Shown here in pieces: positions 2,512 to 49,279 of a stretch of 53,760 bases of DNA. The stretch's first letter is position 1. Every line of letters starts with the position of its first letter. A model generated the notes under the pieces. That model did not search any database and was not told the origin of the DNA. It was given only the letters and a program-made list of their open reading frames with translations. The DNA is from Candidatus Omnitrophota bacterium. Its GTDB lineage: Bacteria; Omnitrophota; Gorgyraeia; Zapsychrales; Fredricksoniimonadaceae. The stretch covers positions 640-54,399 of the forward strand of contig JAKFXC010000042.1 of the NCBI GenBank assembly GCA_021731625.1, written 5' to 3'. The translations under genes and the position numbers were made by a program.

Positions 2512-2666
2512 TCAATGAGGCCACAACTTACGGAGCCCGTTTTGACAACCCATTTGCGTCATTATGCCTAGAAGTGGCATAAAGCAAATTGATCGTCAGG
2601 GCGAACGTCACGTTGTCCGGCCGAATGTACGTCGAACTTTCAGCGGCCTCGCTGAAAACTTGACGC
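2512..2666 (-). repeat. structured intergenic element, family B copy 1 (candidate cis-regulatory RNA or mobile palindromic repeat)
   Basis: Fills the map-infA spacer; hairpins and conserved blocks align with 49056-49230, with covarying stems. Confidence 0.7.
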
Positions 2667-3428: not shown

Positions 3429-4068
3429 TGAGAATCTTCACCAGCTCATCCCGGACATCTTCTGTTTCTTTATCGCCGCTGATTGCCTTCAGCCGTCCGC
3501 TGCGCGCGTAATACTCCACAATCGGCTGGGTGCTCTCCCGATAAATTGCCATGCGCTTGCGGATGGTCTCTTCGTTGTCATCCGTCCGCTGAAACAGCGG
3601 CCCGCGGCACACGTCGCATACGCCCGGGGCCTTGGGCGGTTTACTGTCCACGTGGTAAAGTGCCCCGCATTTCTTGCACACCCGGCGTCCAGCCAAACGT
3701 TTGAGGATGGTGGCCAGCTGGGTTTCCATATTCAGCGCGAAATCGAGCGGCTGCCCGGCTTTCTTGAGAATAAGATCCAAGTCCCGCGCCTGCTGCACGG
3801 TGCGCGGAAAACCATCCAGCATGTACCCTTGGACGAGCTGGGGATCAGTTTTGACCCTCTGTTCGACCAAGCGGGTGACCACCTCGTCGGGAACTAGGGC
3901 CCCTTTGTCAATCAGGCCTTTGATTTCCTGGCCCAGCGGTGTGCCCTTTTTCATTTCTTCCCGCAGCATGTCTCCGGTGGACACATGCGCAATGCTTTGC
4001 ATTTCTTTAATCAACCCTGCCAGAGAACCTTTGCCCGCCCCCGGCGGTCCCAGCAAAACAATCCTCAT
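3382..4068 (-). CDS. adk: adenylate kinase (Zn-lid type)
   Basis: GPPGAGKG P-loop, STGDMLR, LDGFPRT, CxxC...CxxC lid. Confidence 0.97.
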   Translation of the reverse strand: MRIVLLGPPGAGKGSLAGLIKEMQSIAHVSTGDMLREEMKKGTPLGQEIKGLIDKGALVPDEVVTRLVEQRVKTDPQLVQGYMLDGFPRTVQQARDLDLILKKAGQPLDFALNMETQLATILKRLAGRRVCKKCGALYHVDSKPPKAPGVCDVCRGPLFQRTDDNEETIRKRMAIYRESTQPIVEYYARSGRLKAISGDKETEDVRDELVKILNDAKKPNQDQKPGRS

Positions 4069-37695: not shown

Positions 37696-37862
37696 TTTAG
37701 GATCAGTTATGATGTTCGGCACAATAAGGAACTTTTTGCCAGTGTTTGCGAGGCTTTACGTCGAGAAAATTAATATAATAAATTCTACTATAAAATTTTC
37801 GAGACGTAAACCGAAGCAAACGGCAAAAATGTTCCGTGCCGAACATCATAACTGATCCTAAA
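37696..37862. repeat. 167-bp imperfect palindromic element, family A copy 2
   Basis: Perfect 27-bp terminal inverted repeat tttaggatcagttatgatgttcggcac / gtgccgaacatcataactgatcctaaa; core matches the reverse complement of 534-700. Confidence 0.9.
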
Positions 37863-42052: not shown

Positions 42053-42988
42053 TTACAAACAAAATTGATATTTTGATGCCGCATTTTCGGACAGCCTCAT
42101 CGCTTTTATTTGAGACGCAATACCCCCTGCTTCAAAAATGGCACTGCCCCCGGCATGATGCTGGATTTTCTCTGCCATTGCTTTGCCGGCCAAGGTTTCG
42201 GCAAATGTTCGCAGTTTCATATATTCCTCTCGAGAGTCAATGATGAGGCGGTCAACGTCAGATTTAAGCAAATCGCGCACAACCCTCCAAATAAAATCAT
42301 ATTCCTGATAAACCAGGACCGGACCTTGCTTTTGCTTTGACAAATTTTGGATTTTCTCCCAGATAGCGGTTAAGAACTTAGCATCGCGGATTATCTCTGT
42401 CTCGGTCGCACCAACGGACGCGGTGCGTACAATAAAGCCTCCGCTGTGCGCAAAATTAAATGACTTCAATATTTCTCGAAATCGATGGCGCTCCCGCAAA
42501 TCCTTAGTCTTTTTGGGAATGCCGTCGTGGCGATGCCAAGGCATATAAACAACAAAGCGACCAGGCAAACTGATCTTCGTGCTGAGTTCTGCGTTTTTTG
42601 TACCAATGAGGTCCTTGATCACCTGCACCAGGACCTCCTCACCCTTCTCAACAGGCAGTTCTTTTTTATTCGTCACCGGTGTGCTGTCCGCCAGCTGTCT
42701 TTTATTGAAAATATTTGAGATTTTATTACCTATACTCACGCTGCGTTCGATTTTTCCATAGTCAACGTCACTCAAGAAAGGGTTTTCTTCATCGGCTAAA
42801 TTCAAAAATCCTTTTGTGTCCGGTTCGATATTAATGAAGCCATAGTCTTGTGCCTTGCCCTTATAAATATTACCCACCCTGGAAGGGTGAAGGTCTCGCT
42901 CGATATAAAGGTGGTCCGCCTTGCCATCCACCACAACCGCAACATGCTTCTCGCCGTTGGCCACGTGAATCAAAATTTCCTTAGACAC
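42053..42988 (-). CDS. truncated RNase E/G paralog (S1 plus 5'-sensor only)
   Basis: Colinear with the first two-thirds of the upstream gene (GNIYKGK, SLPGRFVV, GGFIVRTAS); lacks DVN, IDFID and the CxxC Zn-link. Confidence 0.85.
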   Translation of the reverse strand: MSKEILIHVANGEKHVAVVVDGKADHLYIERDLHPSRVGNIYKGKAQDYGFINIEPDTKGFLNLADEENPFLSDVDYGKIERSVSIGNKISNIFNKRQLADSTPVTNKKELPVEKGEEVLVQVIKDLIGTKNAELSTKISLPGRFVVYMPWHRHDGIPKKTKDLRERHRFREILKSFNFAHSGGFIVRTASVGATETEIIRDAKFLTAIWEKIQNLSKQKQGPVLVYQEYDFIWRVVRDLLKSDVDRLIIDSREEYMKLRTFAETLAGKAMAEKIQHHAGGSAIFEAGGIASQIKAMRLSENAASKYQFCL

Positions 42989-43016: not shown

Positions 43017-44417
43017 TTAATCGATCTTGACTTTGCCCCGCCCCTCGCAATACGGGCAGCTGTGGAACTTCAACGATTCAATGGCTTTGCCGGTGCGGGC
43101 CCGGGTCATTTCGACCAAACCTAGCTGGGATATGCGATTGACTTCGGTTTTCGCATGGTCTTTGACCAATTCATCCCGCAGGCAATGCAACACCTTACGC
43201 TTATGGTCTTCCCGGTTCATGTCGATAAAATCAATGACGATGATCCCGCCTAAGTCGCGCAAGCGCAATTGCCGGGCGATTTCGGGCGCTGCTTCCATGT
43301 TGACCGCAAAGGCCGCATCCTCCGGCGAGCCTTTGGTCTTAAACCGCCCGCTGTTGACATCGACGACGGTCAGGCCCTCGGTGGGTTCAATGACCACGTA
43401 GGCGCCGGATTTTAAATAAATTTTGGGCTCATAAATTTTTTCCAGCTCACGGGCAATCCCCCGCGCCTCAAACACCGACTGCCCGGCGGAGTGGTACTGA
43501 ATTTTGCCAACCAACTCCTTGCCCGCCAGGGTCTCGGCAAACTTGCGCAGTTTGATATATTCTTCCTGCGAGTCAATGGTCAACTTTTCGACCTCATCTT
43601 TGAGCAAATCCCGTACCACCTTCCAAATCAGGTCATATTCCTTATAGATCAAGGCCGGCGCCTGCTTCTGTTTGCCTAAGTTGCGGATCCTCTCCCACAT
43701 GGCGGTTAAAAATTTGGCGTCGCGGGTGATTTCGCGTTCGCCTATATCCACCGAGGCGGTGCGCACGATGAACCCGCCGCTGCGGACAAAATTAAGAGAT
43801 TTGAGAATGTCCCGCAGGCGGTGCCGTTCTTCCGGCTTTTCTATTTTTTTGGAAATGCCGTTGTGGCGGTCAACCGGCATATACACCACAAACCGGCCGG
43901 CCAAACTGATGTGCGTGGTCAACCTTGCCCCTTTGGTGCCAAACGGGTCTTTGACAACCTGCACCAGCACCTCCTGGTCTTTTTTGAGCGGCAGGTCATT
44001 CTTGCCTTTCTGTGGATGCTGCTGGTGCCGCGGGTGGGGTGGCGGCGGTGGTGGCGTCGGATTGGCCTGGGCAGGCTTCTCCGACTCTGTGGCGGCGGCG
44101 CCGGGTTTGGGCATAAACATATTCAACAACTTTTGCCCCACCGTCGGCGGTGCCGGTTCGTCTTCGATCTTTTCGATGTCGTTTAAAAAAGGATTGTCCG
44201 CGTCGGTCAAGTATAAGAATCCGTTTTTCTCCTGCCCGATATTGATGAAGGCACCATTGATCGACGGCAAAATGGACTCCACTTTGCCTTTGTAAATGTT
44301 TCCCAGCATCGACTGATGCCGGTCCAGTTCAATGTAAAAATCATCCAGCTTACCGTCGACCAAAACGGCAACCCGGCGTTCTCCTTCGGCCACATGTATT
44401 AAAATTTCTTTGGACAC
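43017..44417 (-). CDS. rng: ribonuclease E/G family (RNase G-sized)
   Basis: GNIYKGKV, GARLTT, IVRTAS, VDVNSG, LRDLGGIIVIDFIDM, CPYC. Confidence 0.93.
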   Translation of the reverse strand: MSKEILIHVAEGERRVAVLVDGKLDDFYIELDRHQSMLGNIYKGKVESILPSINGAFINIGQEKNGFLYLTDADNPFLNDIEKIEDEPAPPTVGQKLLNMFMPKPGAAATESEKPAQANPTPPPPPPHPRHQQHPQKGKNDLPLKKDQEVLVQVVKDPFGTKGARLTTHISLAGRFVVYMPVDRHNGISKKIEKPEERHRLRDILKSLNFVRSGGFIVRTASVDIGEREITRDAKFLTAMWERIRNLGKQKQAPALIYKEYDLIWKVVRDLLKDEVEKLTIDSQEEYIKLRKFAETLAGKELVGKIQYHSAGQSVFEARGIARELEKIYEPKIYLKSGAYVVIEPTEGLTVVDVNSGRFKTKGSPEDAAFAVNMEAAPEIARQLRLRDLGGIIVIDFIDMNREDHKRKVLHCLRDELVKDHAKTEVNRISQLGLVEMTRARTGKAIESLKFHSCPYCEGRGKVKID

Positions 44418-48469: not shown

Positions 48470-49045
48470 TTACTTTTTGGTCGGAATGGGGGCCAGGGTC
48501 AGTTCCACGACCACGGCCTTGCGTTTCCAGTAAAAAAAACACAACTCATGCTTGGTGGTTTGATCAGGGCTAAATTCCACTCCGCCCATGGCAGAATTCT
48601 TGTAGTTGCGGGGCGGGGACATCACCAGGTCCGCGTAACCTAAGCTCGTCAGAGCATTTTTAAAGTCGGTACCAATGAGCGTGCACAGCTCACCGCAGGC
48701 AGCGATCATGGAAATGTCATCCTCATCGTCGGGCACTTTGATCCCCAATTGATGGAGCATTTTGCCGGCGTTTTCAAAATCCATATACAGCACCATAGCC
48801 CCCCGGGCTTTGTGACGCTCCAAATCCGCCGCGTTTAGATAAAAATTGACCGACGAAATATAGGCGGGTGAGTTGAGTTTCTCCATGCTGTTGACCCGCA
48901 TGCGGCCTTCGTACTGGGCAATGTCGAGGTCTTTGGCCTGGGGGGGCTCACTGGGTGGTATACCGCTCATGGTCGCCAGCCTCTGCTCGATGCAGGTCTG
49001 CATAGCTTTGGTCACCTGGGGATCGATCCCCTTGGTTACGGCCAT
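48470..49045 (-). CDS. CheX/CheC-like protein (degenerate)
   Basis: AACGELCTLIGTDFKNALTSLG..LVMSPP resembles the CheX GE-x2-N..G..K..L..S.P segment; AGGAG RBS before ATG at 49045. Confidence 0.6.
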   Translation of the reverse strand: MAVTKGIDPQVTKAMQTCIEQRLATMSGIPPSEPPQAKDLDIAQYEGRMRVNSMEKLNSPAYISSVNFYLNAADLERHKARGAMVLYMDFENAGKMLHQLGIKVPDDEDDISMIAACGELCTLIGTDFKNALTSLGYADLVMSPPRNYKNSAMGGVEFSPDQTTKHELCFFYWKRKAVVVELTLAPIPTKK

Positions 49046-49055
49046 ATTGTCTCCT

Positions 49056-49230
49056 TCAATGAGCCCCTGACTTGCACAGCTTTGTTTAGACAAAATATTT
49101 GCGGCATGGACCCTGAAAAGCTTAGCGAGCAAATATTCTGTCTAAGCGAACGCCAAGTCAGCCGGGCGAACGTGGCCCACATTGGGCCACGTACAGATTT
49201 TTCGGCGGCCCAGCCGAGAAATCTGTAGAC
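49056..49230 (-). repeat. structured intergenic element, family B copy 2
   Basis: Hairpins tacagatttctcggc/gccgaaaaatctgta, acgtggccca/tgggccacgt and ttagacagaatatttgc/gcaaatattttgtctaa; homologous to 2512-2666. Confidence 0.7.
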
Positions 49231-49250: not shown

Positions 49251-49279
49251 ATCATAATGCCATTTTATAGTTTTTTCAA
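49251..49279 (-). promoter_or_regulatory. putative sigma70 promoter for the cheX-like/pilMNOPQ operon
   Basis: TTGAAA-17 bp-TATGAT. Confidence 0.6.

Follow-up and report, generated by a model that had tools for sequence, protein, structure and literature searches.

A family of small structured repeats without genes, dispersed across Omnitrophota, as the probable identity of the map–infA spacer element

Two structured intergenic elements in a 53,760-nucleotide stretch of Candidatus Omnitrophota DNA (the whole stretch analysed, hereafter the window) probably represent a REP/BIME/MITE-like family of small repeats, dispersed and without genes, that occurs across Omnitrophota as selfish or recycled DNA and does not act as a switch for adjacent genes. 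The family is multi-copy, its members are present at some orthologous sites and absent from others, the copies are mosaic, and they have one sharp end, the terminus of a rod-shaped hairpin. Elements of this kind are commonplace, and the repeat does not amount to a new class of regulatory RNA. The original prediction had proposed a riboswitch- or ribozyme-like RNA, with an old mobile element as its fallback; it is the fallback that fits a multi-copy, dispersed repeat.

The two elements (positions 2511–2669 and 49056–49227, both on the minus strand, as are all their parts given below) are homologous over 198 columns with 76% mean column identity. They thus resemble each other in the same orientation, as had been predicted. 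The blocks named at that time are all there: ttcgSccgg, tgRcgttcgc, ctcattga, the long hairpin atttgc/gcaaat and the 5' hairpin whose loop contains GGCC. Their folding z-scores are −3.4 and −5.1, with 0 of 200 shuffles folding equally well, and the similarity goes beyond chance, since the same genome holds 8 more copies.

Copy 1 (66.4 bits with R2, a short-form covariance model) occupies the entire 159 nt from the map stop codon (2670–2672) to the infA ATG (2508–2510). It consists of a 4-nt leader, a hairpin, P1, which RNAalifold placed at 2630–2665 (15 bp, loop gaggcc at 2645–2650), and the rod (2512–2629). Within the rod are a weakened closing helix P0 (tacat/attga), a tc/tc loop (2623–2624 with 2517–2518), ggcc/ggcc (2619–2622 with 2519–2522), an acaac/gttgt helix and a long apical hairpin (2535–2602). 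Copy 2 (49056–49227, 45.7 bits with R2) stands before a gene of 191 aa; its end at 49056 is followed by GAAGGAG and then by the ATG at 49043–49045. Its P1 (49192–49227, loop tgggcc at 49207–49212) and its rod (49056–49170; gccc/gggc, ctgacttg/caagtcag, a long apical hairpin and the tail tc-attga) are separated by an optional extra hairpin, gtggccc..gggccac (49171–49191), which is found in 4 of 9 aligned copies of this genome (3 of 8 full copies). Pfam matches confirmed the identities of Map, IF-1 and the response regulator. The 191-aa product had no Pfam match at E ≤ 0.001, so the “CheX-like” label once given to it was dropped. A promoter-like site, TTGAAA-17-TATGAT (49251–49279, minus strand), lies upstream of copy 2 and outside the repeat; with it, copy 2 would be a 5' UTR.

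The repeat lies outside the known Rfam classes, as anticipated. A search against Rfam 15 returned no family at or above its gathering threshold except tRNAs, the best other matches scoring 15–38 bits against thresholds of 75–100; in the window, the only families were two tRNAs located elsewhere, and the E-value mode yielded noise. Full-text literature searches found no description of this repeat family.

BLAST, nhmmer and R1, a covariance model built from the 8 full copies of the source genome, identified 10 loci in this 2.28-Mb, 101-contig assembly, two of them partial. Contigs break inside the repeat, and an extra motif scan of the same genome found no copies beyond the 10.

RNAalifold on 8 copies of this genome predicted 49 pairs, with compensatory changes in 30. 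In 34 matches drawn from 28 loci in related genomes, pairing holds in 94.5% of 1023 cells and double changes occur at 39 of the 49 pairs; this alignment was fitted to the model and therefore favours the modelled structure. None of 500 shuffles reached the observed level of pairing, and when the partners were slid by 1–3 columns it fell to 31–41%. Covariation also marks an extra closing helix that was spotted by eye and is outside the model, in which UNAAU after P1 pairs with AUUNA at the extreme 3' end; its second pair is AU in 18, UA in 7 and CG in 3 cases. The conserved, covarying structure seen by the original prediction is therefore real. The constant unit is a rod hairpin of ∼60 nt, usually preceded by P1, a freely varying hairpin. 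The closing helix YNAAT/ATTNR forms the foot of the rod; above it come a conserved 2×2 TC/TC loop, a GC helix of 4 bp, a bulge and then the conserved ACTTAYG/CRTAAGT helix, which leads to a variable tip. In the source genome the tip bears an additional ∼60-nt hairpin, a lineage-specific feature found also in genome G029; most copies outside these two genomes are 85–120 nt long and have no such apical hairpin.

The paired cells comprise 945 Watson-Crick, 22 G-U, 14 A-C and 42 other combinations. G-U pairs are as rare as A-C pairs, so neither strand shows a wobble signature. The basal 2×2 loop is TC/TC in 52/60 and 31/34 copies, and the opposite strand reads tandem GA/GA. Because of these conserved tandem GA mismatches, the opposite strand folds better: the complement is the more stable one in 51/57 and 29/32 copies, by 3.4–4 kcal/mol on average. 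Thus, there is no sign of a selected RNA strand. The lack of G-U enrichment and the better folding of the other strand argue against a riboswitch, as does the rod itself, which is a plain helix with small loops and has no conserved junction resembling a ligand pocket.

R1 matched 26 of 61 relatives, and R2, with up to 25 candidates per genome scored, matched at least 94 of 151 genomes sampled across Omnitrophota; the closed genome G208 carries 60 copies. A pattern scan of species representatives found at least 124 loci, and among the 80 matches listed 53 are titled Candidatus Omnitrophota or Omnitrophica. When 30 pattern loci were checked with R2, all of those labelled Planctomycetes (10/10) or Omnitrophota (3/3) and both unlabelled ones (2/2) were real. 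Of the 15 labelled outside the PVC group, 2 were real (a Ratteibacteria MAG and a Thermodesulfovibrionia-labelled MAG) and 13 were chance matches. Viral contigs gave 58 pattern matches, none of which was real among the 46 checked with the model, 12 near-duplicate loci being left out. The family thus appears restricted to Omnitrophota and a small number of MAGs labelled otherwise.

Comparison of orthologous sites points to insertion. Of 30 map–infA junctions from the same taxonomic family, 28 have a spacer free of the repeat: it measures 1–5 nt at 17 loci and 8–63 nt, without the motifs, at 11, as against 159 nt in the source genome. The 72-nt spacer of G021 holds an independent, different short copy in the same orientation, and the spacer of its congener G006 is 3 nt. 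The map–infA copy is thus an insertion and not ancestral. Similarly, in genus g3, G027 carries two copies that G002, G062 and G033 lack at the orthologous sites. Between G208 and G165, whose flanks are 85–91% identical, some copies are common to both; others are absent or are replaced by an unrelated spacer, often over the whole stop-to-start distance.

The anatomy of the copies in G208 is asymmetric. Similarity between them stops 1–6 nt past the rod in every case and starts at the rod, at P1 or 85–100 nt farther upstream. Paired copies are arranged head-to-head in 9 cases (five with a single common P1) and in tandem in 4, with no tail-to-tail pair. Terminal inverted repeats are absent from the P1-rod units, and no signal of target duplication was found in 93 copies (longest shared word, 4.13 observed versus 4.20 permuted). 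A recurrent module of ∼200 nt adjoins inverted rods in this genome, and positions 3746–3892 of its locus L144 belong to a further repeat family, matched at least 5 times in G165.

Orientation relative to genes is inconsistent across genomes. The original prediction held that random orientation would speak against it, and this was found in part. In the source genome, where genes were called, as elsewhere in the analysis, by longest-ORF heuristics, 6 of the 10 copies are sense to both neighbours (one directly before metK), 1 is mixed and 3 are antisense to both, these three lying between co-directional genes (one before uppS, one between an ABC ATPase and an Mce-like gene, and one on contig C20). 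The order sample (n = 32) has 20 sense and 5 antisense copies, a 4:1 sense bias. The 60 copies of G208, in contrast, divide into 18 sense, 24 antisense, 11 convergent and 7 divergent. Relative to replication, with origin and terminus placed by GC skew, 37 of these point one way and 23 the other, a weak bias. The sense bias of the order sample and the weakness of this replication-strand bias both count against the dispersed-repeat reading.

REP/BIME sequences and REPINs are moved by RAYT (Y1 HUH) transposases, and two reports (PMC3116915, PMC3337134) describe them as short, extragenic, gene-less imperfect palindromes in many copies that occur as singlets, inverted doublets and mosaics and are predicted to form hairpins in single-stranded DNA or mRNA; the Omnitrophota repeat has all of these features in common with them. 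Its 60 extragenic copies and 9 head-to-head pairs in G208 are what a REP/REPIN family would be expected to display. It differs in its ∼60-nt unit, its conserved internal TC/TC loops, its covarying closing helix, the excess of singlets over doublets and the lack both of an adjoining Y1 gene and of a correlation with Y1 genes. The GTAG-type 5' motif, a feature of REPs, was not seen in the Omnitrophota repeat. The ends of IS200/IS605 elements and of gene-less PATEs have subterminal hairpins, with neither inverted ends nor target duplication, and in the IS200/IS605 right end a guide pairs with the cleavage site. The Omnitrophota repeat likewise has hairpin ends without inverted ends or target duplication, and the short helix at its hairpin foot is reminiscent of this guide pairing. 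Unlike in IS200/IS605, its P1 and rod are dissimilar, none of the copies flanks tnpA, TnpB did not turn up in the genomes searched and the 5' side lacks a fixed target word. ERIC/IRU, Correia (NEMIS), RPE and bcr1 are folded intergenic repeats of 100–160 nt that are co-transcribed, show insertion polymorphism and sometimes provide stop codons or ribosome binding sites. They carry terminal inverted repeats, with a TA duplication in the case of Correia; both features are missing from the Omnitrophota repeat.

No mobilizing gene was found, and this counts against a mobile repeat. Pfam Y1_Tnp occurs in 18 of 26 repeat-bearing genomes and in 23 of 35 without the repeat, showing no correlation, and across 151 genomes the Y1-like protein of the source genome was not associated with the repeat (77/17/42/15, odds ratio 1.6, p = 0.30). 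No copy adjoins a Y1 gene at the Y1 loci examined, and no RAYT (Y1) gene was found flanked by the repeats or correlated with them in occurrence; an 18-bit match near one Y1 gene proved to be a plain terminator-like hairpin. The TnpB zinc ribbon was found neither in the source genome nor in 5 high-copy genomes, and the idea of a TnpB omega-RNA was rejected on this ground. Likewise, no full-length parent carrying tnpA and/or tnpB within the same ends came to light in these genomes or at 15 Y1 loci, and a candidate autonomous element between two inverted G208 rods consisted of nusG and adjacent genes. Because a linked transposase is lacking, we assign the family to neither REP/REPIN nor IS200/IS605. 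Positions 1198–1872 of locus L013 (contig C31 of the source genome) encode a 225-aa Y1/IS200-like protein between rsmI-like and glmS-like genes; 119 of the 151 Omnitrophota genomes contain relatives, often more than one, and the protein may serve other repeat families.

HUH/Y1 enzymes use a hairpin-dependent route for REP/REPIN and IS200/IS605 ends. We suggest that the Omnitrophota repeat spread, in the past or at present, as DNA by a route of this hairpin-dependent type, without inverted ends or target duplication. The rod would be the recognised end and the closing helix would be a guide paired to the cleavage site. That an enzyme acting on the hairpin takes part in the spread is a tentative proposal, with somewhat less than an even chance. 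Copies within operons would be tolerated because two tight hairpins hold the stop codon, the Shine-Dalgarno (SD)-like leader and the start codon close to one another.

Many copies fit closely between genes. The rod end falls −17 to +8 nt from a gene boundary in 32 of 60 G208 copies, 12 being sense at a start codon and 20 antisense at the stop codon of a converging gene. An AAGGA-like leader is present in 8–9 of 14 copies directly abutting a start, and the rod terminus directly abuts a tRNA 5' end in two genomes (L114, 1501–1690; L048, 3' flank). Such placement, together with the frequent replacement of whole stop-to-start spacers and the retention of orthologous copies between species, would suit an RNA module recruited by the host as operon punctuation, serving mRNA stabilization or processing or translational coupling, possibly alongside a mobile origin. 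Both orientations occur, however, and where ∼89% of a genome is coding, by longest-ORF calls, copies would be expected to lie close against gene ends anyway; we therefore consider this explanation rather unlikely. The ∼93% identity of orthologous G208/G165 copies, estimated by eye against 85–91% for their flanks, and the exact stop-to-start fit could nonetheless reflect selection for a host function. A more specific variant, which we regard as distinctly improbable, is that the rod, whether it is the recognised end of a hitherto undescribed hairpin-guided element or has been recruited as an RNA module, homes in on the boundaries of genes (start and stop codons and tRNA 5' ends) and replaces whole spacers, leaving operon translation intact, with the closing helix as a programmable guide.

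It is very doubtful that the repeat is a classical MITE, mobilized by a DDE transposase and leaving a short target duplication. A 410-nt composite (an unknown module, an inverted rod, P1 and a rod) is present in G208, absent in G165 and flanked by the 5-bp duplication CCTTT, and head-to-head rods could serve as long inverted ends. Paired rods differ in sequence, however, and apart from this one possible exception the P1-rod units and the 93 copies analysed have neither the inverted repeats nor the duplications of DDE-type MITEs. The CCTTT duplication hints at a different mechanism for the composite.

Least probable of all is the riboswitch- or ribozyme-like RNA controlling the translation start of the downstream gene. 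Like riboswitches and leader RNAs, the repeat has a strongly covarying structure that can end at a start codon, and it matches no known family. A start codon or SD directly follows the rod in about 20 of the 32 order-sample matches listed, and the base pairing of the rod takes in the A of the ATG and a GGGG/GGSC stretch 7–9 nt upstream. But the repeat is multi-copy, it precedes unrelated genes (infA, metK, rplK and tRNAs among them), its antisense and convergent copies stay intact, it is absent upstream of infA in 28 of 30 relatives, and it has no conserved sense placement before orthologous or functionally related genes.

Taken together with the dispersed-repeat reading, these data remove a tempting false riboswitch candidate from the list, and the two covariance models define a phylum-wide repeat family that could otherwise be mistaken for regulatory RNA in Omnitrophota annotation. 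The stop-to-start fit, the tandem mismatches and the missing transposase bear on how streamlined genomes tolerate and spread such inserts.

The window contains other repeats. A second, unrelated hairpin-rich repeat of ∼138 nt is present at 553–690 and, inverted, at 37706–37843 (86–89% identical); one copy occupies the rpsD–rpoA spacer. It does not match R2 and is probably the “family A” of the original prediction. In addition, a 158-nt direct repeat with 71% identity lies at 42510–42667 and 43846–44003, 1336 nt apart.
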